Source: a virus | Reading direction: 5' to 3' (one strand) | IMG/VR virus record: IMGVR_UViG_3300005253_000098 | Coordinates: 1-64,000 of that record | DNA length: 64,000 bases | Shown here: positions 17,979-35,715 of the stretch, one piece after another | Layout of the letters: each line of letters starts with the position of its first letter | Position numbering within the stretch: position 1 is the stretch's first letter | The notes under the pieces: model-generated | What the model was told of the DNA's origin: nothing | Databases searched by the model: none | Seen by the model: the letters and a program-made list of their open reading frames with translations, nothing else | Made by a program: the position numbers and the translations under genes

Positions 17979-20900
17979 TTAGTCTACATCCTTTATTACT
18001 TGTCTACTTATTTTGGTTTCACTCATAAACTGATGGATAATATCCATTGGATAATTATGACCATTGCTTATCGGAATAATCCACATACCGTCTGTGAACA
18101 CAAATCCGCTCCCATTCATGCGAACTTCGACTTGTATATCAGTCAAGAATTCATTGTCAACAGTGAACACAGCGAATATTTGATTATTCCAATCGTCCGT
18201 ATTAACACTGTTAGTAACCTGGTCTGTTAATGTTTTTGATCCAGAACTAACATCGATATCAAGAGTCTGACTGACACCATTTCTCCTGGCTCCAACAATT
18301 ACTGCATAGCTCCCAGCTTCCAAATAGATATTGCTCCACCGAACATATTGATTATTTACACTAAAATATATGGTAGATGGGTTCTGTTCACCCAGATACG
18401 TAGATAAGGAACCACCGTTATTAGCTGACATATCACCAATTGGATAGAATATCTGGTGGAAATAAGGTATCGGTATCAGTCCTGTCTCCATTTGACCATC
18501 ATCAAAATCTCCCCGTTCTACCCAGAACAAATGGTTGTCTGTGAAGTAGTTTTTAGTTCCACCCTCGGTGCTAAAGTCTGCAGTCCCATCCACACCCGGT
18601 GTCATGTAGTTATAGACTGATACCCAGATCACATTGCTGGATGCCGAGTAGGTTATCGCATGGATGATTTCCACATGGTTCAAGGTAGCAGCAATCGGAT
18701 AATCAGATCCTAAGACATCTCTGCGTGAGTCCACGTATCTGATAGCATTATCATCATTTCTGGTTCCAAAAACATTTACTTTAAGCCTAACATTCCCGAA
18801 CTCAGTTCCAATAGGATTATAGGTCGCCATTGGAAACAGATTATCGTCTCGCATGATATGAAAGTATCTGAGATCATTCGCTGGTAATTTCTGGCTTCCA
18901 TATCTTTTATAGTTTTTGAGAACTATTCCACCAATATCTCCACGGAACTTCATCTCATAACTTGTCTGGTATGCTCCTTCTTTTATTCGTGCTCTGACGA
19001 AGTCTGGTCTGATCTCCTCGAGTTCTATTTTGTTGAAATGAGGAGCAGTAAGTGTTGTCTCACTGTAATGCTTGATTATGGCTCCAGCGCTTGGTCCCAT
19101 TTGCTTATCCACAAAGAACCCAAGCTCCTCATCCTTCAACCAGTAATCATGGATAATAATATTTCCAATTGCTCCATTATGGAATTCGCTCGCTACATAT
19201 CTACCAATACGCATATAACGAAGGTTTCGGATAGTAGTCTGGGCAGTCCCAGTCTTTGTTACAGTATGTTCTGTTCCATTAATTACTATTTTTCCAGTAT
19301 CATTTGGTATGTCACACCTGAATGAGATAGTATATAAAGTGTTAACAGCCAATGGAGTATCAGTAGTAATCATATAACGAGATACTCCTCCTGTTCCGAC
19401 TAATGCAAATTCTATATCTCCATCGCTGTAGATCCTACAATAGACAGTTGTTTCATATGAGGTATTGAATAATTCAAATGGTAACATATGGGAGGCTGGT
19501 AATGTAAAGATATATACGGAGAATTGCAAACTAAATACAGTGGGAAACTCGATATCTCCAGTATGATTAAATTCGACACCGCCTCGACTTTTCCACGCCC
19601 ACATGAAATCTCCTGTTATACCTGGAAATTTAAATCCAGGGTTCGTTACTACTTCTGCTCCTTCTACCACTCTACTTCCATGGCTATCTAACTGGATAGA
19701 TCTTCCATTATCGGAATGTTGGCTGAACCAGTAGATCGGTGCTCTCCACCTATCGGTTGGTCTCTTGACCCATCGCTTATCGATATATCTAAACTCACTC
19801 TTTAGATAAACCTCACCAGTCTTATACTGATCCTTAATTACTACCCCATCCTCATCTGGGGTAATAACCTTATCCCAGACCATGAATTCGTCCATATAAC
19901 CATCATATGTTGAGATCACATTTGCACCATTGCCACCAAGATACATATTAAAATTACTGGTAAATGTAGGAGTTGGTGTCGTAAAAGGAGACCCAGTTTG
20001 TAATACCCCATCCAAATATATATTCAGAGATCCATCATCCCACGATATAAGCACTCGATGAATTGTATTAATAACAATAGGAACAGCTCCTACAATCGTA
20101 CCATTAATGTTCACATCAAAGGTATTATTATCCTGTATGAAAATAGCGACTGCTTCTCCTGCTCCATTATTTATAATAAATAACAAATATGATGTTGCAG
20201 CAGCAGGAGTATTAATATACATAAAGGTTAGACTAATAGACCAGGTAGTTCCAATAGGAGTTTCCAATCCATCGATCCAACCCATAGACCAACCAATGAC
20301 AGCTGATTTCCGATATGCCCACTCATTAAACCGACCATGTGAATTCATCAAAAACAGATTATTAACATTCTGCAGGAGATGTAATCCATTCTCACTTTTA
20401 TCAGTCATTCGAGTATTACCGTTGTCCCAGTCATTGTGATCAAAGGTGATCCAGCATACAGGAGTATCATTCGAGACAGGCATTGTTTCTCCCCTGTTCC
20501 TGAGTCCTGTCTCTGCATAAGATATCTTCCCATTGAGAGGATTGGTTGCCCATGGTCGCTCTCGCTCTGTTGATCCAATACGAGGAGTCCTTCCAGATTG
20601 TATGAAAACCGTTTTACTTCTATCACGCACAGCAACTAATATTCCATTCTTGTAAAGCATTTCCCTGTTTTGAGAGAGAATATGCATTATTCGTGTTACT
20701 GTATTAGGATCTATACTTACCCCTGTATTCCAGACCGTATCACCTGATGCATCATTTCCAAAGTTTGCATATATGGTCTGGGTTGTTCCACTCGTAACAT
20801 AGATGTAGAATCCATCGTTCTGGAAGTCATCAGTATTCGAGAATATTCCCTGGAATTCTGTAGAGCTCCTCCACTTACTGAATTGTTCAACTGTGAATTC

Positions 20901-22559
20901 TACCTCTGTGTAAATATTCCAGCCCTCGAAACTATATTTTCCAACATAAAAGCTATGACCATAGGTCAGGTCAGTTTCTCTTGACTCGAACAATGGTGCG
21001 TGGTGAAAATCCTGTGATCCGTCATCACGGTCAATCCATTGCTCGTGTTGATCTCGTAAGTCCAGGTGATCATCTTTATTGTAACTTCTCCCTGCTTGTT
21101 CTGGTATGACGTCCAGTCTACGCATCCGTGGATTGGGCAGACTTGTATCTGTTCCTCCAGCTGTTAGGCTTTGTTTCCACATCGTCCTGAATCGGAATAC
21201 GTCTGGATACAGGTAGATCATACTGGTCTGTGAGGTCTGCACGTAAGCCATGATCCCGTTCTCGATCACACAATCTCCCTTGAATGTATGATTAGGGTCA
21301 TAGACTCGACTCCAATAGAGAGGCTTTAAGAAAAATCCTTTGTCTTCTGTCCATTTGTTCTCGTTGGTGTCCCATACCTTAACGTCCTCATCCCCGACCC
21401 TGCCCAACCAGGGCACGTAATCCACCGGCTCTCGTGCATAAACTATCTTATTGATTAATCCCCGGCTGGTATCCAACCAGCCCCGTGAACTCGAGTGTCT
21501 CCTGCTTATTGCTTGCCAGTTCGGAATTCTGACAATCGGATTGTCCCGTAGTATTTCACAATGAAAGCTCTGGAATTGAGTTGAACTGCTTCCAGTCCTT
21601 ACTCCTACTCCTCCTGTTACCCAGGTTGGATCTATGATCTTAACGTAGAATTTTCCGTTGTAATATAAGTAGAATGTATCACCGGATGCTATTACTGTTA
21701 ATGTATGTTGATCGGTGGTGCTAACATTTACTCCCAGGTTATGATCCCATATAGTTACGTCTGAAGCTCCATGCAGGTTCCGATTTATTTTTATGTTATC
21801 AACGGTTGATCCATTGAGATGATAATAATAGCCAGCATCATCAGAGTCTGCATGTTCTGCGTAGGAACTCTGTATTCGGAAATATATACCTGCGTGTGTT
21901 TCTGCTCCTCCGAAATTAAATGATATACTACAAATAAAGTCTGCTGTGTGATAGGGTGTTGCTCGTATTGAATTGTAGGTTGTAGAGCTTGTAGTAAACA
22001 AGAAACCGCTACCTACACTCCATATGCCAACTAAAGTTTCCCAGTGCGAAGGGACGCTGGAAAAGGTTTCGTAATGATCATAGATCCCATGTTGTCTTCG
22101 TTTGTTAGTATCTACATCCTCTTCAGCTACGAAGTTTGGTATAGGTAGTCTGGTGCTCCTGGCATTTAATCTAAGTTTGTTATATGATCCTTTTAAGTGA
22201 GCAGTAATAGTTTTAGTAACATATTCTATTTCTTTAAATTCTGCACCAGTAATAATTACTACACCATCGTAGCTGGTCGTCCATTGCAATCCCTGCACGG
22301 CGAAGTTATCATTTTCCATTAATTCTTTTAGTGCCTGGAATAATTCTGGTTCATAGATAGTAGTTATGGTTAGATCAAAAGAATGCTGATGTTGTTTTTG
22401 TTCCAATAAGCCAGTGGTATATTGTGAGACCATAATATTAGTAGCAAAGCTTACAGTTTCCTGTTCATATATCCAGTGATCACCGAATTTGATACCAAGT
22501 CTTGGTTCATCAATCATGTTATTTTTGCACCTATTTTTCCACCAACAGTGTTCTTGCAT
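17979..22559 (-). CDS. large tail/receptor-binding protein with LamG (ConA-like) domains (likely start 22517)
   Basis: repeated LamG signatures (LNIYLDGV, YDGYMDEFMVWDKV, HNGAIGNIIIHDYWL). Confidence 0.8.
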   Translation of the reverse strand: MQEHCWWKNRCKNNMIDEPRLGIKFGDHWIYEQETVSFATNIMVSQYTTGLLEQKQHQHSFDLTITTIYEPELFQALKELMENDNFAVQGLQWTTSYDGVVIITGAEFKEIEYVTKTITAHLKGSYNKLRLNARSTRLPIPNFVAEEDVDTNKRRQHGIYDHYETFSSVPSHWETLVGIWSVGSGFLFTTSSTTYNSIRATPYHTADFICSISFNFGGAETHAGIYFRIQSSYAEHADSDDAGYYYHLNGSTVDNIKINRNLHGASDVTIWDHNLGVNVSTTDQHTLTVIASGDTFYLYYNGKFYVKIIDPTWVTGGVGVRTGSSSTQFQSFHCEILRDNPIVRIPNWQAISRRHSSSRGWLDTSRGLINKIVYAREPVDYVPWLGRVGDEDVKVWDTNENKWTEDKGFFLKPLYWSRVYDPNHTFKGDCVIENGIMAYVQTSQTSMIYLYPDVFRFRTMWKQSLTAGGTDTSLPNPRMRRLDVIPEQAGRSYNKDDHLDLRDQHEQWIDRDDGSQDFHHAPLFESRETDLTYGHSFYVGKYSFEGWNIYTEVEFTVEQFSKWRSSTEFQGIFSNTDDFQNDGFYIYVTSGTTQTIYANFGNDASGDTVWNTGVSIDPNTVTRIMHILSQNREMLYKNGILVAVRDRSKTVFIQSGRTPRIGSTERERPWATNPLNGKISYAETGLRNRGETMPVSNDTPVCWITFDHNDWDNGNTRMTDKSENGLHLLQNVNNLFLMNSHGRFNEWAYRKSAVIGWSMGWIDGLETPIGTTWSISLTFMYINTPAAATSYLLFIINNGAGEAVAIFIQDNNTFDVNINGTIVGAVPIVINTIHRVLISWDDGSLNIYLDGVLQTGSPFTTPTPTFTSNFNMYLGGNGANVISTYDGYMDEFMVWDKVITPDEDGVVIKDQYKTGEVYLKSEFRYIDKRWVKRPTDRWRAPIYWFSQHSDNGRSIQLDSHGSRVVEGAEVVTNPGFKFPGITGDFMWAWKSRGGVEFNHTGDIEFPTVFSLQFSVYIFTLPASHMLPFELFNTSYETTVYCRIYSDGDIEFALVGTGGVSRYMITTDTPLAVNTLYTISFRCDIPNDTGKIVINGTEHTVTKTGTAQTTIRNLRYMRIGRYVASEFHNGAIGNIIIHDYWLKDEELGFFVDKQMGPSAGAIIKHYSETTLTAPHFNKIELEEIRPDFVRARIKEGAYQTSYEMKFRGDIGGIVLKNYKRYGSQKLPANDLRYFHIMRDDNLFPMATYNPIGTEFGNVRLKVNVFGTRNDDNAIRYVDSRRDVLGSDYPIAATLNHVEIIHAITYSASSNVIWVSVYNYMTPGVDGTADFSTEGGTKNYFTDNHLFWVERGDFDDGQMETGLIPIPYFHQIFYPIGDMSANNGGSLSTYLGEQNPSTIYFSVNNQYVRWSNIYLEAGSYAVIVGARRNGVSQTLDIDVSSGSKTLTDQVTNSVNTDDWNNQIFAVFTVDNEFLTDIQVEVRMNGSGFVFTDGMWIIPISNGHNYPMDIIHQFMSETKISRQVIKDVD

Positions 22560-25500
22560 TTAATCATTGCTAAGTATATGGTATCCATGATTCCCTGATA
22601 GTCCTTCTGCCCACTCATCGGTATACAGATAGCGTAGTCTATTTCTACGTTTGTTGCACTGGCAGTAAAATGAGTATTCAGATTGCTGGTCTGATCATAG
22701 TATTGATCAATCATAACTACAACTTCTCCAGTAGAAGAATTAACATAGATATCTGAAGTGCCATCTCTTAGTCTTAAAGAACCAGTAGCACCTCCTCCAT
22801 GGAATCTACCTCCCATCCAGTAATGTCCAGCATCTACTGTTCCCCAATCAACATTTACTGTATCAGTGCCAGAATTTAGTTCTGTGATATAACCATCAGG
22901 GGTGGTAGTAGCTGTAATAGAGTTAGCGATTTCTGCAGCAGCACCTCCTACATAGGTAACACCAGGTTCACTATTGTCTCGTGGGTAGACCAAGGGATAG
23001 AAGGGTGTAGGGACTGCTCCGACGATAAATCTTTCATCTACATCAAGTGAACGCATACTCATCTGTCTGGCTACGCCACTAACAGTAGCGAAATACCATC
23101 TGTCTGTTGCAGAAGAATATTTATTTCCTGCAGCAAAGCCAACCCATTTCCTACCATGCCTAACAAAGGCAGAAGCTGGCATCCATGCATGATCAGGTTC
23201 ATCTCGACTGGTTGAGGCTGTTCTACCAAATACGTCGGTTGAGGCACTGATTCCCCCGAGCACAGTGAAGTGATAGTATGCCCCTTCCATGAAGTGTATG
23301 AGCCACTGGAAACTTGTAGTAGAGAATGTTTCTTCATTCATAGGAGTGGAGACAATACTGAAGACCACAGTCTGTTGTCCACCAAACAATTCTACCCTGA
23401 TAATAATATCATTCTCCTTCCATGATCGGACATCTGTGGTCTGGATGATAGGATCGAGTTCCCAGTTATTCATCATCTGGCAATCGATAATAACAGAGTT
23501 GCCGGTAATTTCTACGATATCGAAACTCCTTACGTATTGATCATTATCACCAGTAGATTCAACAGTTTCTGCATATACCCCAATGTTACCTATGTAATCC
23601 CAATTGTCCACTGATGGATCCCACACAAACTGAGAGATGTGTCCAGCATCAAACTTACTCTGCTTACTTATTCGTAAGCCTATTAGTCCATTTTCTATCC
23701 ATAGAGTATCATTAGGAGAGCCAAGCACATTAACATTTTTCTTCTGGTGCCATCTCCAATCACGGGCACGATACAGTCGCTGAACGGTTCTTTCTAATTG
23801 AATGGTTGGACCAAACCAATTCTTATATGTTTCCCTTACATCAGACGCACTCCAGGCATAACTGTAAATTGAAAAGTGAACCATTTTCATTGCTATCCAG
23901 TTGGTTGAATTCCTCCAGTTACCAATAGCGATTTCTGCTGATGTTGAAGGAAACCCAGCTATCGTGGTGCTTGAATCAAATTTTCCATCTACGTAGATGA
24001 CCATGGTATTTGTAGATCGATTTACTGTAATAGTTAGCAGATGCCATACATCATCAAAGATATTGAACTTCTTACCGGTATATATATTAGGGACTCCACC
24101 GTCTCTCAACTCTATTTCTAAGCCTGTATCTGTATCACTACCATAATTGATTTGTATGAATTCCGTGGTTGAACCACTGTTGAAAATAGTCGCTTCGTCA
24201 GTAGTATCGCCTGTCTTAAGAATGAAGTTATAAGTTCGTTGATCTGATCCACCAGGAAAACCATACTCTACCCCAGACAATCCTGTCCTATATAATTGTT
24301 GATTTGTCCCATTGAATGAGAGAGAGTAGTCCCAATGTTTAGAGGGAGTATCTGGGTTCCACTGTGGACCATTAGCATCAGGAACATTATTAGTTAATGG
24401 TGTTACGCTATTATATCTCTGTAAATATACAACATTAGCACTTGTATCATGGATATAGGTCAATTGATGGTCTGGTGTTCCGTCATGAAAAGTCCACATG
24501 CCCAAGACATTAGTTTCTTTAGCAAAGTCTTCATTGTTCTCCTTTAATAAATATTGATGTCCTTGCCAGGTTTGGCGTGATTCGGGGATATACCATGCTT
24601 TTCTTGGATATGTCTGGTAAAGTAATTTGGCTTCAGCAGGGGTAATAGCTTTGTTTATCCAGAACCAGCCATGAATATTTCCTTCTAAAATATGAGTAGC
24701 GATTCCAGCCCAGGGTGCTTCAAAAGGATATACTGATCCAACCGAATGATAGGAAATATTATGGGCATTAACTATATCCCAATCTGACCATGTAAGGAAC
24801 TGATCTCGGATTAATCTACCATCTCGATAGAGTTGACAGTAATTGGCACTTACCACTACAATATACTGGTGCCAGGTGTCATCGTTCGAGTTGATATAAA
24901 TCAGCATATCTTCGGTTTCTGAGCTTGAGATAGTCTGGAGAATCCTAACATTTAACGCATTAATTGAATCATCCCATAAGAAAAAAATTCCGTATTCTGT
25001 ATTACTATTATATGGAATAGACCAGAGATATCCATCTGTAATTTCAGCGGAATCGTGCTTGAACCAGATAACAAAAGTGGTTGGTGCTCCGTGCCATGTT
25101 TCCTTATAAAACTGACGATCTGCTATACGAATACGTGAGTCCAATCCATTAAGAATAAATGAGTTATAGAATGCGAGATCGGGCATATCTGTCTGACTCC
25201 AGATACCTCCACCGTGTAGTGTGCCAGTTGAGAGAGCTGCTACTTCTGGAAAATCATTGAAGGCTGCAAACTCATATTGAGAGGTCTTTCCTGTCCAACG
25301 CTGTGTCCAACCCACTTCCAGTTGATCGATGACATTAGCTGAGTCTCTCCACCAGTCAAGTATAGAACTGTTGGGAATACGGTAGGCTCGCACATTCTCA
25401 GCTGATATCAAACCTTGTCCCTTAATAGGATGGATAACTGTTCTATAGATAGCTATTAGATCGACAGTCGCATTTATCCTGTAGTTGCCAGTAGGATAAA

Positions 25501-27772
25501 TTGATGTGTCGGTAGAAGTGTTACCTCCAATAATACTGTATAATGTAATAGCAGCTGGAGCATCAGTTATATCATAATCTTTACTGATTGGTTGACCGTC
25601 CAGGTATGTCATCTTATAATTATTGTCGTAATCCCAGATAAAAACAAAATCATAGTATTTCTCCAATTCGAGATCCATGTAGTGGGCAGTTCCTGTTGAG
25701 CCCTCGCTCCACTGGATAATCTTTACCCGATAAATCTTGCTTGTCCCAGCAAATTCCTGAACAGATGTTCTTTCATATATCATCTGAAGTTCTATGGCTT
25801 CTTTATGGCTTGAAGTCCGATGGGCATAGATGACCATAGGTTCTTCTCCAGTAGAGAACTCGTGGAACTTCATTCTAATACGAACGGTCGCCTTACCATT
25901 AGTATTAAATCCGAACTGATAAGGAAAGATTATAAACTTAGTTTTCTCAGGGGATGCTGTCGCTGGAACACTAAGGTTACTGTCTAATCGCAAAGCATTA
26001 CCACTTATCCCCCCGTTTTCGATGATTGATCCATTGGAGATCAGATCGAATCCATCATTAGTAACTGAACTGTCCAGGTTAAAGGCGTAGTTTTTTGGAT
26101 GGGAAGCATTCTTGTCTCTGAAGTCCGTATAGAGGATACAGTCTGGTCCAGTCTCTTCCCATCTCCCGATAAGCTGTTTCTCTCTTCCTATGCTTCTATA
26201 TATTTTTCCGTATGGAGTCTCGAGTGTGTGTATATTAGAGTAAGATCCTATCGGTTCTGATCCAGGTGGTAATGATATAACACTTCTTTTAGGTGTAGAT
26301 ACCTGGATTGTGTCCCACCACATTGTTTTAGTAGCAGCGCCGTTTGATTCAAATGAAATACCTCCAGTAGTATTGATACCAGCAGCTACTGCCTTCTCGA
26401 GCTGAACTGAAAATATATGTGTTCCATTTATCCAGACATTGACATTATGACCAATGTTTATGATTTTAAAACTATACCATGTATCGATATCCATTGGTAT
26501 TGGTTTTTGAGGGGTGATAATTTTCTGTGTTGTTCCTTCTCGATAAGCCAAGTAAATGATATTAGAGATTCGATCCATATATAATTCTATACTATCGCTA
26601 TATCCATCTCCATCGATCGGAGTATGCCACCGTATAATTGCATAGTCCGCAGGATCGAGAGGTCCGAGATCAATTTCCTCATTTTCACTGATGCCACTTG
26701 TAGTCATACTGAGACTGTCAATTGCTGAGTCTGAACCTCTATTTGGTGAATGTGTCCAGCGTATGGTCTTAATAATCTTACCAGCAGCCAATGTGCTCAG
26801 GTAGTTGTCTAATACCCATGTTCCAGAAGATGATGTGCGAGTATATTGATCTGTCGTGTCATCGGTATATGTGACCTTCATTGTAACTGTTCGAGTCGAG
26901 AAAAGCTTGGAATATCCAGTAAAGGCTGTAATATTATCAACAGGGATCATGACATTTTGTTCAATATAGCCCTCGTAATAAGTTGGAGATTGGTAAGGAG
27001 TTATTTTACATCCCCATGCCCCTGCTTGACGAAAAAAGGCACCTGTAGTTGCAGCTGGAGGAAGACTTGGATGAAGAGAATCGTAATCATCCCAATCAGT
27101 TGCTAAATTACCATTATCAAAATTTCCATCCTTTAAGAGATCAATGGTTATAATATTGGGTTCAAGATGCCAGTTAAACATTCCTTCGATCTGGACATCT
27201 CTTGCGTATGCATTAATAGTAACTCGTCCTCCATCTGTCTTGAGGACATCTCCCCCTTCATATGCTTCTGCATCGGCTACCGATTTAACAGTGCCAGTTT
27301 CTTTTTCCCAAGTGATAGAAGATTGTTGTTTTCCACCTGTCCTCCCTATGCCATCTACAGTTGTTATATCTGAACCTGTCCATTCCGCATTCTCGAATGA
27401 TTCATCAATGATGTATTCCCAGTCGTTCTCAATATAAATAGCTTTTGAGGTTACGATAATGCCCTCGACCTTCTGGAAAGTTATGTCAATATTATATCGA
27501 TTCTTTGATGTCTCTGAGTAGCTTAAACGATTGGCAATAACCATATAATTGACGTCATCTGGTCCTTTGATCTTCTTGGCTCCACTAATAGCTTTGGTAG
27601 TCAAAGCAATATATTCCTTGTATGTTATACCATTAAACATTAGTGTAAATACTGGAATAGTTGAAGAGGTTGGGAAAGAGGATATATATCCTTCTAAAAG
27701 AGAGATGTTAACATTAGAGTTTAGTTCACGAATAGCATGAAAGGGTGTTCCATCAATCTCGAATCGTTGCAT
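22514..27772 (-). CDS. large tail protein with CBM-like and multiple LamG domains
   Basis: LLKDGNFD CBM-like start; DDVWHLLTIT...MVIYVDG, INATVDLIAIY, WHQYIVV...LYRDG. Confidence 0.8.
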   Translation of the reverse strand: MQRFEIDGTPFHAIRELNSNVNISLLEGYISSFPTSSTIPVFTLMFNGITYKEYIALTTKAISGAKKIKGPDDVNYMVIANRLSYSETSKNRYNIDITFQKVEGIIVTSKAIYIENDWEYIIDESFENAEWTGSDITTVDGIGRTGGKQQSSITWEKETGTVKSVADAEAYEGGDVLKTDGGRVTINAYARDVQIEGMFNWHLEPNIITIDLLKDGNFDNGNLATDWDDYDSLHPSLPPAATTGAFFRQAGAWGCKITPYQSPTYYEGYIEQNVMIPVDNITAFTGYSKLFSTRTVTMKVTYTDDTTDQYTRTSSSGTWVLDNYLSTLAAGKIIKTIRWTHSPNRGSDSAIDSLSMTTSGISENEEIDLGPLDPADYAIIRWHTPIDGDGYSDSIELYMDRISNIIYLAYREGTTQKIITPQKPIPMDIDTWYSFKIINIGHNVNVWINGTHIFSVQLEKAVAAGINTTGGISFESNGAATKTMWWDTIQVSTPKRSVISLPPGSEPIGSYSNIHTLETPYGKIYRSIGREKQLIGRWEETGPDCILYTDFRDKNASHPKNYAFNLDSSVTNDGFDLISNGSIIENGGISGNALRLDSNLSVPATASPEKTKFIIFPYQFGFNTNGKATVRIRMKFHEFSTGEEPMVIYAHRTSSHKEAIELQMIYERTSVQEFAGTSKIYRVKIIQWSEGSTGTAHYMDLELEKYYDFVFIWDYDNNYKMTYLDGQPISKDYDITDAPAAITLYSIIGGNTSTDTSIYPTGNYRINATVDLIAIYRTVIHPIKGQGLISAENVRAYRIPNSSILDWWRDSANVIDQLEVGWTQRWTGKTSQYEFAAFNDFPEVAALSTGTLHGGGIWSQTDMPDLAFYNSFILNGLDSRIRIADRQFYKETWHGAPTTFVIWFKHDSAEITDGYLWSIPYNSNTEYGIFFLWDDSINALNVRILQTISSSETEDMLIYINSNDDTWHQYIVVVSANYCQLYRDGRLIRDQFLTWSDWDIVNAHNISYHSVGSVYPFEAPWAGIATHILEGNIHGWFWINKAITPAEAKLLYQTYPRKAWYIPESRQTWQGHQYLLKENNEDFAKETNVLGMWTFHDGTPDHQLTYIHDTSANVVYLQRYNSVTPLTNNVPDANGPQWNPDTPSKHWDYSLSFNGTNQQLYRTGLSGVEYGFPGGSDQRTYNFILKTGDTTDEATIFNSGSTTEFIQINYGSDTDTGLEIELRDGGVPNIYTGKKFNIFDDVWHLLTITVNRSTNTMVIYVDGKFDSSTTIAGFPSTSAEIAIGNWRNSTNWIAMKMVHFSIYSYAWSASDVRETYKNWFGPTIQLERTVQRLYRARDWRWHQKKNVNVLGSPNDTLWIENGLIGLRISKQSKFDAGHISQFVWDPSVDNWDYIGNIGVYAETVESTGDNDQYVRSFDIVEITGNSVIIDCQMMNNWELDPIIQTTDVRSWKENDIIIRVELFGGQQTVVFSIVSTPMNEETFSTTSFQWLIHFMEGAYYHFTVLGGISASTDVFGRTASTSRDEPDHAWMPASAFVRHGRKWVGFAAGNKYSSATDRWYFATVSGVARQMSMRSLDVDERFIVGAVPTPFYPLVYPRDNSEPGVTYVGGAAAEIANSITATTTPDGYITELNSGTDTVNVDWGTVDAGHYWMGGRFHGGGATGSLRLRDGTSDIYVNSSTGEVVVMIDQYYDQTSNLNTHFTASATNVEIDYAICIPMSGQKDYQGIMDTIYLAMIKCKNTVGGKIGAKIT

Positions 27773-28838
27773 AGGGAACTACATCTTTAAAGATTATTTC
27801 GTTTACCTGCCACTTTACAAGCTGTGTCTTACACCATTCTTGATTTAGAGCATACATACTTCCGGTTGCATCTTGGAAGTTTGAATAGCAGGTGCTACAC
27901 GGATAAGCAGGGCAGGAATGACACTGATTAAAGTCGTAGTTTTGGATCTTCAAAAACTTATCGTTAAAGAAAGTGGCTCCGTTTTCATTTATCTGTCCAA
28001 CTGGTTCTAAGTTAGAACGGTGGCAGGGCTTAATAGAGCTGTCAGTATCGATACCGATAGACTTCTGACAGGCTCCACAGGTAACACGATTCTGAGGTTT
28101 TGCTCCACCAGTTCTTTTATAAGCTCGTTTTACATTCTGAAAGTTTCTTATTGTTCCTAATTTAAATCCTTCCTTAACATACCATGTAGCAAGGTTGAGC
28201 CAATGTTTATGGAGTTCCCAGGTTGACCACTTGCCGGAATGTGTAGTGTCTAAGTTGAAATGCACGAATTGTTGCGAGCGTCCAAGAAGGAAAGCCGCCG
28301 AGTCTTTCACCATCTTAACCGTGTCAGGGGTTACGGTTGCAGCAATGGCTGGCACTATGCCCGAATCCAAGAGGTTATCCCAACCACGCACAACCCTACT
28401 ATGAGTAACATCACCAGTATTAGACACTCTGTGCAAATCGTGAGCCTCAGCTATACCATCGCAACTAAGCAATACACCAAACTTATTTTCTTTTAACCAT
28501 TTTGCTTTAGTTTTATCTATTAAAGAACCGTTGCTTGTCATCCCAAGAGTAAAGCTTTTGTTCATATTCTCTTGGAACCAGCTCACCATACCTGTCATTA
28601 AAGGGTAGGATAACATAGGCTCTGTGCCAAAAAAGTGTATCTTTCCTCCATCTTCTAATAAATCTCTAATGACCTCACAGACATGAAGAGATTCCTGCAC
28701 GGTCATAAACTTTGGTTGCTTGGGGATAAAACAGTAAGTGCAACGAAAATTGCACTCTTCATTTAAGTTGACAGTAATCTCACTATACTGGTTATTCTGC
28801 TGTGGAGGGGTAGAGGGCTTGAATTTTTGCTGACTCAT
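27753..28838 (-). CDS. radical SAM/SPASM peptide-maturase-like enzyme
   Basis: CNFRCTYC, HFFGTEPML, MTSNGSL, LSCDG...HDLHR; SPASM Cys: CGAC...PCHR...CHSC...CSTC...WC. Confidence 0.92.
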   Translation of the reverse strand: MSQQKFKPSTPPQQNNQYSEITVNLNEECNFRCTYCFIPKQPKFMTVQESLHVCEVIRDLLEDGGKIHFFGTEPMLSYPLMTGMVSWFQENMNKSFTLGMTSNGSLIDKTKAKWLKENKFGVLLSCDGIAEAHDLHRVSNTGDVTHSRVVRGWDNLLDSGIVPAIAATVTPDTVKMVKDSAAFLLGRSQQFVHFNLDTTHSGKWSTWELHKHWLNLATWYVKEGFKLGTIRNFQNVKRAYKRTGGAKPQNRVTCGACQKSIGIDTDSSIKPCHRSNLEPVGQINENGATFFNDKFLKIQNYDFNQCHSCPAYPCSTCYSNFQDATGSMYALNQEWCKTQLVKWQVNEIIFKDVVPYATIRD

Positions 28839-29259
28839 ACGTGTGTCTACCAGCTCTTGAGTTATGGATATTAAAGTGTTTAGCTAATAGTTTCTTAATA
28901 CTTTCGTGCTTAATTTCTACACCTGCTTCCTTTACGAAATCTAATTCTTTCAGGACGGTATGAATCATTCCAGTATTGATCTGCTTCCTATTAGAGGACA
29001 GATCCAAAACAATTTCCTGTATGTTTTCAATAAGTTTGACTTGAAAATCAAACATTTCCTGTATTTGTTTCCCGGGTTGCCAAATAAAAATATCGGACTT
29101 AACAGGAACTCGTGCCTGTTCTTTGCCTTCTTTACTGACTTCTACCGGGGCTTTAGCGACTGCTTTTTTCTTAGCAGTGGATTTCTTTTTTGATTTAACC
29201 GGAGCTACAACGGGTGCAACTTCTGGTTGTGGTTTAACTTTTTCTGGAGGGGCTGCCAT
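28792..29259 (-). CDS. hypothetical protein (Pro/Lys-rich N-terminus)
   Basis: GGTGA SD; overlaps the radical SAM start. Confidence 0.6.
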   Translation of the reverse strand: MAAPPEKVKPQPEVAPVVAPVKSKKKSTAKKKAVAKAPVEVSKEGKEQARVPVKSDIFIWQPGKQIQEMFDFQVKLIENIQEIVLDLSSNRKQINTGMIHTVLKELDFVKEAGVEIKHESIKKLLAKHFNIHNSRAGRHTYESAKIQALYPSTAE

Positions 29260-29352
29260 TATTTCACCATAAATTTAGGGATATTGAGTAGAACCGTTGA
29301 TTGGTTCTTAGCTTGACGATTGCATATTTTATACAGCCTATTTAAGCTTTAT

Positions 29353-29874
29353 CTATGATCTTATATTCCAGAAACATAGTGAGCCATTAGCAAGTATCCA
29401 AGTTCGTTGATGTAATTGGATCGTAATGGACGAATCATTGGTAGTCACATTATACAGGAGATCAAGGTCATAATTATACAATGAAAATTTAGCTTCACAC
29501 TTTGATGTAATAGTTATACTGGTGCTATTGACTCCATACGGTCCATCGAAGATAGCATCACCAAATAATAGGTTTGTAGGTGCTTCTGTTCTGGTGTATG
29601 TGAAAAATCTCCATCGCGTGTCCGGGTGACTATTATATATTATCTCGTAATCTTGTGATGGTAGTGAGATCCATGTATATTCAACATTCCAGGTAAGTGT
29701 AAGTTTATTATTAATACTGATATTGATATCTCGTTTCTCTTCTGATATGCTCTGAATTTCTATGACTGTCCACTCATCAGATATATCATCTGGTGGTGTA
29801 TATAGAATCATCCCTATAAATAATGTTAGAGTCCATACTGATAGTAAAAATATTGCAGTTCCTCTTTTGGACAT
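29353..29874 (-). CDS. N-terminally membrane-anchored beta-rich protein
   Basis: TAIFLLSVWTLTLFIGMILY hydrophobic helix. Confidence 0.6.
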   Translation of the reverse strand: MSKRGTAIFLLSVWTLTLFIGMILYTPPDDISDEWTVIEIQSISEEKRDINISINNKLTLTWNVEYTWISLPSQDYEIIYNSHPDTRWRFFTYTRTEAPTNLLFGDAIFDGPYGVNSTSITITSKCEAKFSLYNYDLDLLYNVTTNDSSITIQLHQRTWILANGSLCFWNIRS

Positions 29875-31829
29875 TATCTGGTCTCAACTTCCAAGTAGGT
29901 CTCACAATTTTCTAAACAGGGATTCTTAACAACTATACCTTCCGTAGTAAGTATCCCGGTTACCGTTTGATTTTTATCATTCTGGCAGACCTCTTCACAT
30001 TGTGCTTGACAAAATTCAAAGCATGTATCTTGATCGAAGGTCGCATTGAGCTTGTATCCTTGACCCGCTGTTTGTGTGTTGACGTTCATTACTCTAAACG
30101 CAGATAATATTGCTAACATATCAGGGTTCTCTGATCCGAGGATCATTACCATTTTCTCTTTTGACGTGACCGTAATAGCTCTGACCAGTAGCTTAAAACG
30201 CTTTCCTTTCCAAATAATATTGATCATATCATTAAGTCGAATGTTAGGGTTGAACGGCACTTCTACATCTCCAGTAATAACTTCTTTTTCTAACCTGGCA
30301 AGTATCCCCCTGCTTGTCTGATGAGCAGTCTGCCAATCCTTAAGATCTGGATTACTGAATGACTTAGTTCTGATCCCTATCTTATTAATAGAATCAGTAT
30401 TTCTTTTGACAATATTAATCTGATGAAATTGAAAGCTTAAATTATCGATCCATAAATGACAGTTCGCTGCTTTCATACTATAAGTGATACCTGACATTCT
30501 GAAAATAATACCCTCGATATCATTAGCCTTTAGGGATACTGAACCGCTTGAGACCGGGTAAAGAACTAATCTTTTCCAGCCTTTATTGGGATAAATCTGA
30601 AAAGTGTCACCTGTCCTAATCTCTTTTGTAGCAATATGGTTAGCTGTTGGTGAGTTCCCATTGGTAAGATATTCCTGTCCATCATTTGTATTGATATAAA
30701 CCTGAAAAAGTGGGAATGCACAATCTACTACCGGATTCCTGGTTAGTCCAACCTCTCCGTGTTGATCTTGACTCCACCTAAATGATACTGTTATAGTATC
30801 AAGGATTAAATTACCCAGATCAACATCTTCATATTGTTTGGCTCTTTTGACTGCTGAATTACAAACATCTCCTTCGCCATCACTCCAATCGGCTGAGGTT
30901 CCTTCAAACCCGAATGAACCGGTCTGATTGGAGAAGTTACAGTAAGCGTTTATAGATGGAGTATCATTAATAATATTAATTCTGATCGCATAATTTCCCT
31001 CTCGCACCCCACCAGTATTGACAACTGGAGCATCTTGTTCTGGATCATATAATTGTATTCCAGCATCTGAGCTGGGGTTATAGGTTAATGACCAACCTGT
31101 AGGTGTTCCACCTGGGGTTCCGTCTTCAGTAAAGAAGTCTTTGTCACCTGGGACTATTGGTGGGACTCCACCAATGAATTTAACATCATTAACGACCTGT
31201 GTATTGTCAAAGCTCAGGGACTGAACCTTATAGGTAATATTATCGTGATAGGTTCCCGAACCAAGTGGGTTGAACCTGACTCGTTTTCTTCCATCTATCC
31301 AGATAGAGAATCCTATATCAACTACACTAACACTTGAACTATTAGCCAGTTCAATCAGAGCATCAGCAAGCGTTCGATTATTAAACTTCCATTTTTTGGA
31401 GGTGTTGGTAGCATCAACATAAGTAATATAATTGTAATCCGTATCTGTGCTTGTCTTACCAGTGTAAGTATTGAACAATTGTCTTAATGCAAGAGTTGCA
31501 TTGACGGCTTCTAATAAGAAGGGTGTGGTGGTGTTAGCTGCTGCCCAATCTATTAATCGATCACCAAGTTTACCCATTTCGTCCTTCCCATTAAACGTAA
31601 CAGTAGTTTCAGTATCATCTATTAATGTTCCGAATCTCCCAGAGAACATTGGTTCACCTCTCCATTCAATTCGCATATCCATCCCTGGGATCATAAACTT
31701 AAGCATGTCTGCTTCCATGATTACACTAAAGATCCCAACCTGATTTATGGCTTGAGTATAAGTAAAACTGACAAAATTAATTTCTATTTCTTCCATCTGT
31801 TGGAACTGAGCGAATACTTTAAACGTCAT
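29874..31829 (-). CDS. baseplate hub/tail-tip protein with C-terminal CxxxC-repeat tag
   Basis: follows tape measure; FSGRF...TFNGKD..GKL, DSINKIGIR, NPNIRLNDMI hub motifs; ends CFEFCQAQCEEVC...CLENC. Confidence 0.75.
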   Translation of the reverse strand: MTFKVFAQFQQMEEIEINFVSFTYTQAINQVGIFSVIMEADMLKFMIPGMDMRIEWRGEPMFSGRFGTLIDDTETTVTFNGKDEMGKLGDRLIDWAAANTTTPFLLEAVNATLALRQLFNTYTGKTSTDTDYNYITYVDATNTSKKWKFNNRTLADALIELANSSSVSVVDIGFSIWIDGRKRVRFNPLGSGTYHDNITYKVQSLSFDNTQVVNDVKFIGGVPPIVPGDKDFFTEDGTPGGTPTGWSLTYNPSSDAGIQLYDPEQDAPVVNTGGVREGNYAIRINIINDTPSINAYCNFSNQTGSFGFEGTSADWSDGEGDVCNSAVKRAKQYEDVDLGNLILDTITVSFRWSQDQHGEVGLTRNPVVDCAFPLFQVYINTNDGQEYLTNGNSPTANHIATKEIRTGDTFQIYPNKGWKRLVLYPVSSGSVSLKANDIEGIIFRMSGITYSMKAANCHLWIDNLSFQFHQINIVKRNTDSINKIGIRTKSFSNPDLKDWQTAHQTSRGILARLEKEVITGDVEVPFNPNIRLNDMINIIWKGKRFKLLVRAITVTSKEKMVMILGSENPDMLAILSAFRVMNVNTQTAGQGYKLNATFDQDTCFEFCQAQCEEVCQNDKNQTVTGILTTEGIVVKNPCLENCETYLEVETR

Positions 31830-31975
31830 TTATTGTATACTTCCCACCAATCCAGATGTGGATAATATTTCTGCATCAACCTTACTTGCCATGGTTCTAA
31901 TGTTTTCACGTGCTTAAGTCCAGCTTTGATGCATTTCCATGTTTGTTTTACATTAAACTTATATTTGGTAGTCAT
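31826..31975 (-). CDS. small protein (49 aa, not in ORF track)
   Basis: MTTKYKFNVKQTWKCIK...WWEVYNK; ATGA overlaps with both neighbours. Confidence 0.5.
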   Translation of the reverse strand: MTTKYKFNVKQTWKCIKAGLKHVKTLEPWQVRLMQKYYPHLDWWEVYNK

Positions 31976-34900
31976 GCCATTACCTGTTTTAATTTTTCAG
32001 ATATTTGCTTAATTGTTCTGTCTGCTTCCATGGGATCATCTGCTTTGATAATAAAAGTAATGTTCTGAGTAACGTTATTATTATTGTTTGTGGTGCTTCT
32101 ACCATCGGCTATACGTATAGCAGTATTTAGAGTATCTGCATCTCTTGAGGAGAAGACTGGTTCTCCTCCATGAGCAATAATTGGAACACTGCCTGCCCCT
32201 GGAACTGTTCCACCTGTTTGGAAACTACTAAACCACCTGGCAACGTCTCCGAGACTACTCCATGTTCTTTCCTCTATCGAGCCTTTTCCACTACGTTGCC
32301 ACCGATCCTGTTCAAAGTCTTCAATCAGACCCTTTGCACCAAAGGTAAGTGCATTAAATCCATCCACAATAACCTTGACGATAGCATCTCCTATCATAAC
32401 GATAACATTAGAAATGCCTTCTACCAGGATCTCCGGCGAATTTATTAGTATATCTGTTGCTTTAGCTACTCCATCGACCATTTCAGTGAACCCATTAGCT
32501 AAGTTATCCAATCCATCCAGTAACCATTGAGTTAATCTACCGAGATCGTCCCAGAGATCCTGTAGGTTAAGTAATACAGTTATTGCTCCAAATAGACCAC
32601 CTACTAACCTGGCGAATCCATCAATGATTCCTAATAAACCCTGTATCAAGACTACTCCTGCAAATCTTCCGAGTTCGTAGAATAGACGTAATATATCTCC
32701 AAGTATCTGCATAAGTGGATTAATGACACCCATAATTGCACCGAAGATTGCTCCTAAACCATCACTAATTCCAGTCAGACCTTCCATGCTGGTGCCAAGA
32801 TTATCAAAAATCTTGATCGTTGCTTGAATTGCTCCTACGAGTCCTCCTATAACAAATGCTACTACTGATATAACAATAGATGCTTTAGCAAGGAGTTTTA
32901 CAAATCCCATGAGTCCTCCACCGGCATCAAATAGAGCCTTGTGAAATACAAGTTGTGCTCCTCTTCCAACGATAGCAGCAGCCTCGGGTCCGCCTCCAGC
33001 TCCTGCAATGATCGGTCCGATGGTAGCACCAATGATTCCACCTATTATACCAGCCATAATCTTACTGAATCCGCTTGCTCCAGTTGCTGCGGCTCCTGCT
33101 CCCTGGAATCCTAATGCCATGGTTGTCTTGAGTGTATTAAGTGCAAATATGAATCCACCAAGAACTGGTGTCAAAAGCGAAATGCTTGCTCCTACAACTT
33201 CGATGGCTACTCCTAATCCAGCCAATATTGGCACAGCTGCAACAGCAAACAATGCTATCTGTGTTAATCCGGATGCTATAGCTTCTACAGATGATCCACC
33301 TGTATCACCGAAGATTTTATCTATTATCTTACCTATTCCATCAAATATAAATTTTATAAATCCAAATCTTATTCCTATCCTGTCCAGTAGATCCATCATC
33401 ATCTTAGCAAAGCGTTGACCGTGTGTAGTAGTTGCCTCTAATCCATTTGTGACGGCATCGGTCCCCTTGGTAATCCATCGGAATAAGTTGACTACATCTT
33501 CCAGAAATCTGGTTACTCCTTTTCCTATTCCCGCCCCAATCTCTTCAAAGAATGGTGCCGCATCTTTTAGAACATCTACTAATCTCTCTAAGACACCTGT
33601 TTGCATTAATTGTTTTCCTATGGCTTCTCCTGTGGCTATTTTCATCTCATCAATAGTATTGATCACTGCTTTTAATGCCAGATCTAACCGTGGTGTAGTG
33701 TCATTAGCAAATTCTTCTGTTATACCATTTACGTTTCTATTAGATTCTGCCAGTTCATCGAGAGCATCTCTATTAGCTAATATCTTCTTAACTAATTCTG
33801 CCTGTCTGGCTCCGAACAATTCTGATAAGAACCCAGCTCTGTCAAGGTCTGTTCCAAAACTATCATATTGGACTTGTAGTAAATCGAACTGTTCTCCCAT
33901 CGATCTAAGCTCTCCGGTTGCTGGATCGAGGAAGTCTCTAATATAGAGCTTACCCTTGGTAGCTAATGAATCCAGGACACTACCGAACCTTCTTGCTCCA
34001 ACTGAAGGTGGAATACCAGCCTGTTGCAAAACTCCGAGTGCTGCTGCTACATCTGCTAAACTGAATGAATAAGCTTCTGCAATACCTGAGACGAACTGCA
34101 TTGATGTTCGTAATTCGCTCAATGTAATGTTAGTTTGGTTAGCTGTATTAGTCAAAATATCTGAGGCTTTAGCTGCTGATAAGAATGTATCCTGTGGTAA
34201 TGATTCCCTGAATGATACCATGACATCTGTTAAGGTATCGACTGCTGTTTGTGTATCAGAAAATGTGGCTTTACCAAGTAGCACAGCCTGGTTGAATACG
34301 ATCATAGATTCTGCTCCCCTGAATCCTGCCTGTTGAACCTCGATAAGCATTTCTGCAGTCTCTTGTAACGATACTCCGAAGCTCCTGGCTATGTCGAAGC
34401 CGTCTTTGATCTGAGCCATTCCTACATCGAAAGCATCTCCGGTCTCACCCATAGCTATTCCTAACTGGATAGCTGATTTTTCAAGCTCGGCGAACGATTT
34501 GACTCCAAATATTGCAAATGAACCCAATGCTCCTACAGTAAATAGTATGTCTCGGGCTGTGAACTGTAGATTACGACCGAAGTTCCTGGCTTGTCTGCCT
34601 GCTCGACTGAGAGATCTTCCCAGGCTGTTAGTTTTTCTCCTGACTTTCTCCTGTTCTTTCCTGAACTTTACGAGATCCCTTCGAGTATCCTCTAAGATTT
34701 TCTTGTAGGTTGTCTTTCTCTGGGTGATCTTCTTTGTTTCCTTGGCAACTAAGGCTTCTTCTCTCGCCAAGGACTTCATCTGGATAGCAAATGATTTAGC
34801 AGCGGTTTTTGCGACAGCCATGGCTGTAGCCATTTGATCTCGTTTATTTCCGAGTTCCTCCTCTACTGAAAGTATTTTCTCCTGACTTGCTCCTACTGCT

Positions 34901-35715
34901 GCCATAATCTCAGTTTGATCTTTCCCAGCTTTATCTAAGGCTTTCATGGATTCTTCTACCCGTTTTCTAAACTGTAAGGCTGTTTTTGCCAATTTCTCGA
35001 ATCCAGCGGCGGTCTCTGTTTGCCCGGGGATTACAGTTCCCATTAAAATATTCTGCAATTGTTCCCTTGCTCCTGAAATACGAGCCTGACCTGCTCTATT
35101 CTCAAATGATGAAATCAGCATGCCTCCTTCTGCTTCTCCGGTTACTCCACCTTTCCCGGTTCTTGCTGGCATCCGTTGCGAGTCAAGCATACCCCTGGCT
35201 CTTCTTATTAGTTCCAATTGGAACTGAAGAGAGTGTTCTCTCTCCTTTTCATCTTTTATCAGCTTCTTAAGGACAATTTCTTCTGCCTGTAACTGTATGG
35301 TTATATCTTTACTGAATCTTAGACTCGCCTTCCGTGTTTCGAGATTGTGTTCAAGCACCCTTCTACCTGTTTCACTGTCTCTTCTCTCTGTTTGTATGAG
35401 CTGGTTTCGTTTCTTTTCGGCTTCTAATAGACGACGGACGCCAACTAATTCTCTCTGTTTCATTAGAACGATAAGATTGGATTTTCTTAACTGTATGTCC
35501 ATGTTACGAGTTTGTGATTCCGTCAGTATTTTGATAGAGGGTTTACCTAATTCCTCTTTAGCAAATTTATTATAAGACTTGCTCATTCGATTGATGGCTT
35601 TATTTACTGCATCGAATTGACCACTGATTCCCTTCAATCGGCTACGTATAATATTAGAAGCCTGATCTTCTCCAATAACTAAATCAATGGGGATTTCTAT
35701 TGATGGTGCACTCAT
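31972..35715 (-). CDS. tail tape measure protein (TP901-like core)
   Basis: 1247 aa helical; ASDILTNTANQTNITLSEL...DVAAALGVLQQAGI motif; FQTGG...IIAHGGE C-terminus. Confidence 0.92.
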   Translation of the reverse strand: MSAPSIEIPIDLVIGEDQASNIIRSRLKGISGQFDAVNKAINRMSKSYNKFAKEELGKPSIKILTESQTRNMDIQLRKSNLIVLMKQRELVGVRRLLEAEKKRNQLIQTERRDSETGRRVLEHNLETRKASLRFSKDITIQLQAEEIVLKKLIKDEKEREHSLQFQLELIRRARGMLDSQRMPARTGKGGVTGEAEGGMLISSFENRAGQARISGAREQLQNILMGTVIPGQTETAAGFEKLAKTALQFRKRVEESMKALDKAGKDQTEIMAAVGASQEKILSVEEELGNKRDQMATAMAVAKTAAKSFAIQMKSLAREEALVAKETKKITQRKTTYKKILEDTRRDLVKFRKEQEKVRRKTNSLGRSLSRAGRQARNFGRNLQFTARDILFTVGALGSFAIFGVKSFAELEKSAIQLGIAMGETGDAFDVGMAQIKDGFDIARSFGVSLQETAEMLIEVQQAGFRGAESMIVFNQAVLLGKATFSDTQTAVDTLTDVMVSFRESLPQDTFLSAAKASDILTNTANQTNITLSELRTSMQFVSGIAEAYSFSLADVAAALGVLQQAGIPPSVGARRFGSVLDSLATKGKLYIRDFLDPATGELRSMGEQFDLLQVQYDSFGTDLDRAGFLSELFGARQAELVKKILANRDALDELAESNRNVNGITEEFANDTTPRLDLALKAVINTIDEMKIATGEAIGKQLMQTGVLERLVDVLKDAAPFFEEIGAGIGKGVTRFLEDVVNLFRWITKGTDAVTNGLEATTTHGQRFAKMMMDLLDRIGIRFGFIKFIFDGIGKIIDKIFGDTGGSSVEAIASGLTQIALFAVAAVPILAGLGVAIEVVGASISLLTPVLGGFIFALNTLKTTMALGFQGAGAAATGASGFSKIMAGIIGGIIGATIGPIIAGAGGGPEAAAIVGRGAQLVFHKALFDAGGGLMGFVKLLAKASIVISVVAFVIGGLVGAIQATIKIFDNLGTSMEGLTGISDGLGAIFGAIMGVINPLMQILGDILRLFYELGRFAGVVLIQGLLGIIDGFARLVGGLFGAITVLLNLQDLWDDLGRLTQWLLDGLDNLANGFTEMVDGVAKATDILINSPEILVEGISNVIVMIGDAIVKVIVDGFNALTFGAKGLIEDFEQDRWQRSGKGSIEERTWSSLGDVARWFSSFQTGGTVPGAGSVPIIAHGGEPVFSSRDADTLNTAIRIADGRSTTNNNNNVTQNITFIIKADDPMEADRTIKQISEKLKQVMA

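Follow-up and report, generated by a model that had tools for sequence, protein, structure and literature searches.

A PapB-like radical SAM enzyme as candidate maturase of a cysteine-tagged viral tail hub protein

The first 64 kb of the 90.5-kb IMG/VR virus record IMGVR_UViG_3300005253_000098, referred to here as the window, contain a tail operon in which the gene of a radical S-adenosylmethionine (SAM) enzyme lies, on the same strand as the tail genes, between that of the baseplate hub protein, about 1 kb upstream, and those of two giant fibre proteins. The hub protein ends in a conserved ladder of cysteines (the tag), and the best single explanation of this arrangement, to which we give a probability of roughly one half, is that the enzyme staples the hub's tail through thioether bonds. 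We favor this explanation because of the type of the enzyme, the position of its gene in the operon, the absence of any other visible substrate, and the fact that the tag is conserved and that such enzymes are repeatedly paired with cysteine arrays in other viruses. The original prediction, that a maturase of the RiPP type (peptides made by ribosomes and then modified post-translationally) cross-links a peptide tag fused to a structural tail protein, is thereby borne out in part: as far as sequence can speak, the class of the enzyme, the hub, the conservation of the tag and the cysteine arrays beside similar enzymes elsewhere agree with it, and the cross-linking itself is what we infer from them. 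A check of open reading frames (ORFs) recovered the enzyme and the tag with exactly the coordinates and sequences first noted:

27753..28838 (-), radical SAM enzyme, 361 amino acids (PF04055, with a putative SPASM-type C-terminal cysteine set)
29874..31829 (-), baseplate hub or Tal-type tail tip protein, 651 amino acids (by fold, and by its place directly behind the tape measure gene)
29877..30023 (-), cysteine tag, hub residues 603-651, the proposed substrate region (by conservation)

The enzyme is placed in the radical SAM superfamily by its cluster motif, CNFRCTYC (C29-x3-C33-x2-C36, preceded by 28 residues), and by its match to PF04055 (2e-12; 48 bits, the gathering cut-off being 29.5). 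Its top family among the NCBIfam models is PapB (NF047865; 1.5e-38, 132.9 bits, profile positions 3-327 of 330), which also ranks first for all nine members of the enzyme's clade (44-100% identity; best E-value 2.2e-45). The families that follow are QhpD, the nif11 maturase, CcpM and the SCIFF maturase, all of which act on cysteine-containing peptides or proteins. Scores for the individual families stay below their cut-offs: 85.6 bits against 453 for QhpD (TIGR03906), the second-best family; 65.1 against 425 for the SCIFF maturase (TIGR03974); 62.7 against 349 for anSME (TIGR03942); and 53.5 against 350 for the CXXX-repeat maturase (TIGR04115). MoaA reached only 43 bits, and MoaA and viperin-type matches were much weaker than those to the peptide and protein maturases. 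By profile, the closest solved relative is CteB (5wgg, 4.2e-30, aligned from CteB residue 92) and the next is anSME (1.5e-21); a fold search with the predicted model of the enzyme (pLDDT, the predicted local distance difference test, of 61) gave near-equal values for the two (2.9e-12 for CteB and 6.7e-12 for anSME). The first rank of PapB and the closeness of CteB place the enzyme with the Cys-thioether maturases and not with nucleotide- or cofactor-modifying enzymes, as had been supposed. One relative of the enzyme is labelled by its source as 'sulfatase maturation enzyme AslB'.

Eight C-terminal cysteines (C254, C257, C272, C306, C309, C314, C317 and C336) are invariant in all nine clade members and, when aligned, fall where CteB and anSME have their auxiliary clusters. 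To this extent the SPASM-type cysteine set of the original prediction is plausible; the Pfam SPASM model (PF13186) was not reported at E<=0.01. The auxiliary cysteines are spaced CX2CX4CX2C, the usual SPASM spacing being CX2CX5CX3C, and the structural model is of low confidence in this region. After a conserved auxiliary cysteine, the enzyme and CteB both carry His (PCHR and PCHQ), at the place where anSME carries an Asp (PCDF) that has a catalytic role. Residues 1-91 of CteB, its RiPP recognition element (RRE), are without counterpart in the enzyme, which thus has no N-terminal leader-binding domain. Judged by its sequence, the enzyme is a member of the cysteine-directed peptide and protein maturases that belongs to no curated family and lacks the usual leader-docking domain. 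Its build resembles that of anSME and QhpD, both of which act on proteins according to an excerpt of PMC8326336.

The 651-residue protein has no Pfam, PHROG or NCBIfam match, and a profile search of the PDB returned matches at chance level only (E about 0.5). Its AlphaFold model, built from 14 sequences (mean pLDDT 70, with 80-94 in the hub domains), matched several phage hub and tail tip proteins with a Foldseek probability of 1.00, including Listeria prophage gp18 (3gs9), MuSo2 (3cdd) and Mu gp44 (1wru), as well as the tail of the archaeal virus HFTV1 (9h4p_BD) and proteins of phages 80alpha (6v8i) and T5 (pb3; 7zqp). Because these matches are to gp27-type hubs and Tal proteins, the model indicates that the designation 'tail hub' was correct; the protein has both the hub-domain fold of the gp27/Mu gp44/Tal type and the corresponding position, right after the tape measure gene. 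It consists of gp27-like hub domains, a variable insert (about residues 221-500) and the C-terminal tag. A search among 5.8 billion proteins yielded three near relatives, at 47, 40 and 29% identity, and a full search with a hidden Markov model (HMM) yielded 40 proteins. Of these, 21 end in a Cys-dense CX3C module, which is absent from the remaining 19; what the latter share is mainly the hub domain at the N-terminus. One distant relative (P0041, on a contig of 20,932 bases) matches PF24032 YQBQ-like at 1.5e-06; its source assigns it to a Candidatus Heimdallarchaeota metagenome-assembled genome, a weak hint at archaeal hosts for the hub family.

The hub ends in TCFEFCQAQCEEVCQ...PCLENCETYLEVETR, with the six tag cysteines at positions 603, 607, 611, 615, 638 and 642 (codons 30021-30023 down to 29904-29906). 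Four of them form the run C603-x3-C607-x3-C611-x3-C615, which is followed after 22 residues by NPC638-x3-C642-ETY. When the ten cysteines of the hub were placed at random in 651 positions, 200,000 placements gave at least four CX3C pairs in no case and a CX3CX3CX3C run in three. All six tag cysteines are invariant in four sequences at 29-47% identity, and C603, C611, C615, C638 and C642 are invariant in 14 sequences. The consensus of the module is C...CE..Ce..Cl.d...cQt...nPC....Cqty, which may be read as C-aromatic-x-x-C-E-x-x-C-E-x-x-C-L-x-D ... (C)QT ... NPC-x3-C-Q-x-Y. It is the best-conserved region of the hub (64, 54 and 39% identity, as against 31, 26 and 25% for the central insert), and the tag appears to be under selection. 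Residues that could serve as acidic acceptors include E612/E613 and D618 as well as E640, E643 and E647, which come after the second motif; the four closest sequences all have E612, and all six of the closest group have D or E at position 618. The putative helix of the tag (597-619) is modelled at a pLDDT below 50. Some distant members (P0027, P0041 and P0045) have longer, SCIFF-like ladders, with 10-15 cysteines per 80 residues.

Searches with the tag itself returned little. Comparison of residues 566-651 with a protein atlas gave nothing usable (best feature score 0.76, TM scores below 0.5). A scan of IMG/VR for DNA encoding C[FYW]xxCExx[EQ]CExxC found 12 stretches, none of them hub-like, and tblastn with the enzyme and with three hubs detected relatives of these in none of the 12. 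Some of these loci (L012/L019, L016/L018 and L017) have open frames of 58-68 amino acids with 8-9 cysteines, e.g., ...CCYECEEQCEFIC....

The tag is the only candidate substrate in a Cys-poor structural module (mean cysteine content of 0.69% across 13 proteins) that is accompanied by no free Cys-rich peptide gene. Among all ORFs of at least 30 amino acids in the 90.5-kb record, the hub alone reaches three CX3C pairs. In the region from 17 to 43 kb, the ORFs of 15-120 amino acids with at least four cysteines all lie wholly inside a large gene on the opposite strand, and no SCIFF peptide gene is present among the small ORFs; nor did the window contain a precursor of the PapB type, which has a leader, carries CX3D repeats and docks via an RRE. 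These scans uphold the earlier statement that no separate precursor peptide gene lies nearby.

The position of the enzyme gene ties it to its neighbors. Its end overlaps the start of the 1752-residue fibre gene by 20 nt, confirming that the 361-residue enzyme sits within the tail operon and overlaps the first giant tail gene, and its start overlaps a 155-residue ORF by 47 nt. Because it overlaps the genes on both sides, the enzyme is most likely made together with the tail proteins. The remaining members of the operon are:

36572..37663 (-), tail tube protein (PF18906 Phage_tube_2, 3.2e-12)
31972..35715 (-), tape measure protein, 1247 amino acids, no cysteine (PF10145, 1.1e-23; phrog_167, 1.9e-33)
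29353..29874 (-), 173-residue ORF lying between the hub and enzyme genes; a hydrophobic stretch at the N-terminus, several N-x-S/T sites
28792..29259 (-), 155-residue ORF with a Lys/Ala/Pro-rich N-terminus and no cysteine
22514..27772 (-), giant tail/fibre protein, 1752 amino acids (PF13385 Laminin_G_3, 7.3e-14), with lectin-like domains and 6 scattered cysteines
17979..22559 (-), second giant tail/fibre protein, 1526 amino acids (PF13385, 2.6e-25), with 8 scattered cysteines

Neither the 173- nor the 155-residue ORF matched any family at E<=0.01, and only chance-level matches appeared at E<=1. Because tblastn of the two against five phage loci returned nothing below E 0.4, we make no claim of a shared 'helper' protein. 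The hydrophobic N-terminal stretch and N-x-S/T sites of the 173-residue ORF are unusual in a tail operon.

Whether tagged hub and enzyme travel together in relatives was judged indirectly, with two genes taken to be on the same contig where the contigs had equal base counts. For the enzyme, the list consisted of 104 radical SAM proteins found with a family profile in a word-indexed search at E<=1e-20, which misses more distant enzymes; for the hub, it consisted of representatives at 50% identity and the members of their 90% clusters. Two close relatives appear to be paired: enzyme P0006 (83% identity) and hub P0002 (47%) are both on a JGI contig of 11,141 bases, and enzyme P0007 (80%) and hub P0015 (40% cluster) are both on a Logan contig of 44,050 bases. 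On these apparently shared contigs the enzyme is thus better conserved than the hub. No related loci for the enzyme, the hub, their alignments, or the hubs P0022, P0025 and P0041 were found in viral, metagenome and genome contig collections, and the phage collection contained no tblastn match to P0025.

A test blind to the enzyme came from a scan of IMG/VR for DNA encoding CQxxCQxxCQxxC, which returned at least 106 stretches. By reading of the translated frames, about 98 of the matches listed are tandem DNA repeats and eight are real Cys-array proteins (L022, L024, L028, L061, L076, L105, L116 and L125). An HMM built from the 104 proteins detected radical SAM genes at six of these eight loci, one to four in each, immediately next to the array gene and on its strand; for the other two (L028 and L116), the DNA on the relevant side of the array was not covered. 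At L076, the open frame of the enzyme starts 4 nt past the end of that of the array protein. The array loci hold 14 radical SAM ORFs, and all nine that were scanned have PapB as their top family (51-194 bits), so that the array-adjacent enzymes and that of the window have in common a PapB profile below threshold. There are links to virion structure as well: the gene next to the L125 array encodes a collagen-like tail fibre (phrog_819, 1e-50), L028 matches virion structural PHROGs, and a neighbor of L022 matches an adhesin. In a phage database, where eight of 84 enzyme-matching records were examined, seven of the eight have a Cys-dense ORF within about 3 kb, two of these seven being Erwinia jumbo phages.

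The array proteins themselves are of several kinds. Those of L022, L024, L061 and L105 form a family of 190-305 amino acids that ends in four CX3C units and then ...CH[ND]Q[NK]CG; three of its members (L024, L061 and L105) are flanked by three to four consecutive radical SAM genes, and at L022 one such gene adjoins the array and another is about 8 kb away. L024 also contains a 1752-residue open frame matching phrog_358. Long C[QE]xxC ladders with a PapB-like gene directly adjacent occur in L076 (2-2191, +, 730 amino acids) and L125 (4561-6951, -, 797 amino acids). The L076 protein was considered as a homologue of the hub tag and rejected, since hhalign aligned only 26 columns of the Cys tract. 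Both Erwinia phages, Huxley (L002, 4173-4964, +) and pEa_SNUABM_29 (L009, 5121-5924, +), have two tandem ORFs of 129-133 amino acids, each with about 20 cysteines in CX2-3C arrays, about 1-2 kb upstream of a pair of radical SAM genes, and the phage records annotate hypothetical genes on the opposite strand at these ORFs. In Huxley the two array ORFs are paralogous (42% identity over the N-terminal 64 residues), and about 2 kb farther downstream lies gp172, which forms the radical SAM pair with gp173 and scores best with TIGR04115 (126.6 bits), PapB coming next (125.0). Three further phage records (L005, L006 and L008, GenBank 'UNVERIFIED Bacteriophage sp.' from human faeces) contain SCIFF peptides, ...GGCGECQTSCQSACKTSC..., and L008 has a 468-residue ScfB-like maturase with an N-terminal domain.

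The mechanism that we propose would run as follows. The tail-tip hub would be produced with its C-terminal cysteine ladder, and the radical SAM/SPASM enzyme would be co-transcribed late alongside the tail genes. Some of the ladder cysteines would then become thioether cross-links to nearby side-chain or backbone carbons, that is, RiPP-type chemistry, like that of ranthipeptides or sactipeptides, performed on a 651-residue virion protein. Since the enzyme lacks a leader-binding RRE, it would recognize the tag directly, as anSME and QhpD do their protein substrates. The purpose may be a covalent, redox-proof staple of a helical tail-tip module, disulfides being unstable in anoxic, reducing sediment. 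We infer all three of these, namely the action on the tag, the kind of bond and the purpose. A look-up of sequencing runs found the stretch in marine sediment metagenomes from two studies and listed no RNA datasets containing it; such a habitat would suit an oxygen-sensitive enzyme only if it is anoxic.

Comparison with characterized systems shows what is familiar in this proposal and what is not. According to an excerpt of PMC12373016, PapB requires an Asp or Glu C-terminal to the Cys as acceptor and links the Cys sulfur to it at any spacing, yields alpha or beta links depending on the substrate, and recognizes a leader peptide via its RRE. The PapB/PapA system, which makes the ranthipeptide freyrasin, resembles that of the window in providing the best score and an end-to-end match, with a radical SAM domain and an auxiliary Cys set, and in that PapA has several cysteines each followed by acidic residues, as do the cysteines of the viral tag. 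It differs in that the viral system has neither leader nor separate peptide, its candidate substrate being the C-terminus of a 651-residue structural protein, and in its CX3C motif in place of CX3D repeats. CteB (TIGR03974; PDB 5WGG/5WHY) is the top solved relative by both profile and fold and shares the PCH motif, and the SCIFF core CQTSCQSACKTSC (in L008) resembles the C[QE]xxC ladder; however, SCIFF is a free peptide of 45 amino acids and CteB has an RRE, which the viral enzyme lacks. The viral enzyme also has an extra cysteine, C257, where CteB has Gly, and for this reason the iron site that is open in CteB, as described in part of PMC8326336, may be filled.

Three other systems share individual features. 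QhpD is described in the same part of PMC8326336 as the known case of a radical SAM enzyme that makes Cys-Asp and Cys-Glu thioethers in a protein subunit and not in a RiPP; it is the second-best family for the viral enzyme and has a protein substrate, but its substrate QhpC is a small enzyme subunit and not a virion protein, and no other component of that system is present, though no search aimed at its amine dehydrogenase genes was made. With the viral enzyme, anSME (PDB 4K36-4K39) shares its size and the lack of an RRE; it carries two auxiliary clusters, to which the viral cysteine set may correspond, and its substrates are full-length proteins, as the hub would be, whereas the hub is without a sulfatase motif and the viral His replaces the Asp of anSME. 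The CXXX-repeat system (TIGR04115) likewise has a cysteine at every fourth residue, and its dedicated enzyme is of the SPASM type, as that of the virus may be, but the viral tag has 4+2 cysteines, not dozens, and is fused to the hub rather than forming a separate small protein; no target family of the TIGR04114/TIGR04117 type was reported for the hub (E<=0.01) or for nine relatives (E<=1).

Several observations weigh against the proposal that the enzyme staples the tag. The PapB score of 133 bits is far under the cut-off of 340, placing the enzyme outside that family, and the tag matches no known target family in NCBIfam or Pfam (at the same thresholds for the hub and its nine relatives). Two of the nine clade members, P0009 and P0010, as called, begin after the CX3CX2C motif, at the equivalent of M45; their starts may have been mis-called or the genes truncated. 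Three of the seven positive phage records, the 'UNVERIFIED' faecal contigs with canonical SCIFF, are probably bacterial. With regard to co-occurrence, one of the checks named in the original prediction, the two pairings given above speak for it, and nine tagged hubs on contigs of 8-68 kb speak against it, having no equal-sized contig among the 104 radical SAM proteins: P0017 (22,326 bases), P0018 (8,446), P0019 (13,681), P0022 (51,002), P0023 (13,982), P0025 (68,314), P0034 (67,299), P0041 (20,932) and P0042 (13,739). One of these, P0017, has the identical six-Cys tag. Conversely, the enzymes P0009 (81,815 bases) and P0012 (55,522) have no hub on an equal-sized contig in the hub list. Because nine tagged hubs are unmatched, the tag probably also occurs where this enzyme clade is absent and may function alone, which suggests that it is older and more widespread than the clade. 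We considered these nine hubs as strong counter-evidence and gave them less weight than that: the array-adjacent enzymes from IMG/VR are only 21-31% identical to that of the window, and would therefore fall outside the word-indexed list at E<=1e-20.

The alternative that survives best, and that we nevertheless consider rather unlikely, is that the ladder is sufficient in itself, either as a metal or Fe-S site or as a disulfide-locked helical hairpin in the trimeric tip, and that the enzyme acts elsewhere, on another tail protein or on a non-structural target. The tips of hub and spike proteins often carry metal sites, and the predicted helicity of the tag would put cysteines at i and i+4 on one face. 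The unmatched hubs point in the same direction, P0017 in particular, and so does an extra pair of cysteines that is present together in distant hubs and absent together from the six closest sequences; gain and loss in pairs is typical of disulfides or metal ligands and may also reflect a single evolutionary event. There is, moreover, a precedent in tail tips, in that the proteins of lambda and RcGTA carry a four-cysteine [4Fe-4S] cluster, held in lambda gpL by C173, C182, C205 and C212 (PMC10721106). In gpL, as in the hub, conserved cysteines lie toward the C-terminus of a tail-tip protein, that of a siphophage (PMC10721106). However, the spacing of its ligands is not that of a CX3C ladder, no radical SAM enzyme is involved with it, and it is absent from the chains listed as fold matches of the hub. 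The geometry of an alpha-helix would also prevent four cysteines at i+4 from all reaching one cubane, and disulfides would be expected neither to form in the cytoplasm nor to last in reducing sediment. Furthermore, if the enzyme acted elsewhere, the Cys-poor tail module would have to hold some other substrate of the PapB/CteB type, and none is visible; and in other viral contigs the same type of enzyme directly adjoins Cys arrays.

It is considerably less probable that the enzyme modifies the tag by a different radical chemistry, such as sactionine links to alpha-carbons in a helical hairpin, formylglycine formation as by anSME, or epimerization. Hairpin sactipeptides such as thuricin CD, by the positions of its cysteines, typically have CX3C spacing within their donor half. 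Thuricin CD has three bridges, as given in part of PMC8326336, and PapB itself makes alpha or beta links according to its substrate (PMC12373016, in the excerpt cited above). The near-tie of anSME with CteB in fold and its second place by profile, together with its size, its lack of an RRE and its action on whole proteins, would be in keeping with such a different chemistry; but the anSME family scores less than half as many bits as PapB, the residue after the auxiliary cysteine is the His of CteB and not the Asp of anSME, and no sulfatase-type C/S-x-P/A-x-R motif occurs in the hub, and none with Cys in the 13 structural proteins. Least probable of all, and in our view very improbable, is that the virus captured the gene from a host and uses the enzyme in a metabolic, cofactor or anti-defence role, its place in the tail operon being incidental: viral radical SAM genes are often read as auxiliary metabolic genes (in an excerpt of PMC13452462) and one relative carries the AslB label, but the top families are all peptide and protein maturases with MoaA and viperin-type matches far behind, the gene overlaps its neighbors on both sides, and on the apparently shared contigs the enzyme is more conserved than the hub.

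Other parts of the genome add some context. A 148-residue protein of the structural module, about 11 kb from the enzyme (39902-40348, -), has nine cysteines, including CNGCGDCC, and a weak match, below cut-off, to PF03692 CxxCxxCC (putative zinc- or iron-chelating; E 0.0034). The sole large plus-strand gene within the minus-strand structural block, at 41192-42313, matches a glycosyltransferase PHROG (phrog_13126, 4.5e-11). Twenty replication and structural proteins gave few family matches, these being a family B DNA polymerase, a weak ERCC4 and the glycosyltransferase.

Full-text literature searches found no report of radical SAM modification of a virion protein for any virus, in agreement with the original prediction, whose author knew of no described system like it. 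Thioether maturation by SPASM-type enzymes is known; the combination of a leaderless enzyme and a structural-protein substrate would be new. Thioether stapling of the hub by the enzyme may, in addition, be one instance of something wider. As a tentative proposition, for which we would put the odds a little short of even, tailed viruses of anoxic habitats would staple their own virion proteins with leader-independent PapB-like enzymes; the window would represent one compact member, with 4+2 cysteines and one enzyme, of a broad viral class of Cys arrays with radical SAM genes that includes jumbo phages and many IMG/VR contigs, and its target would be the ladder of the trimeric hub, where the staples would replace disulfides in a redox-proof way, at that part of the tail which meets the host.

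If stapling of the hub is correct, chemistry familiar from RiPPs, which are small antibiotic-like peptides, and from a single enzyme subunit (QhpC) would serve in building virus particles as well, and this would explain the recurrence of PapB-like radical SAM genes in phage tail modules. A leaderless thioether-forming enzyme that accepts the tail of a folded protein would be useful for protein stapling, and its presence here would show how virions keep rigid in reducing, anoxic settings.

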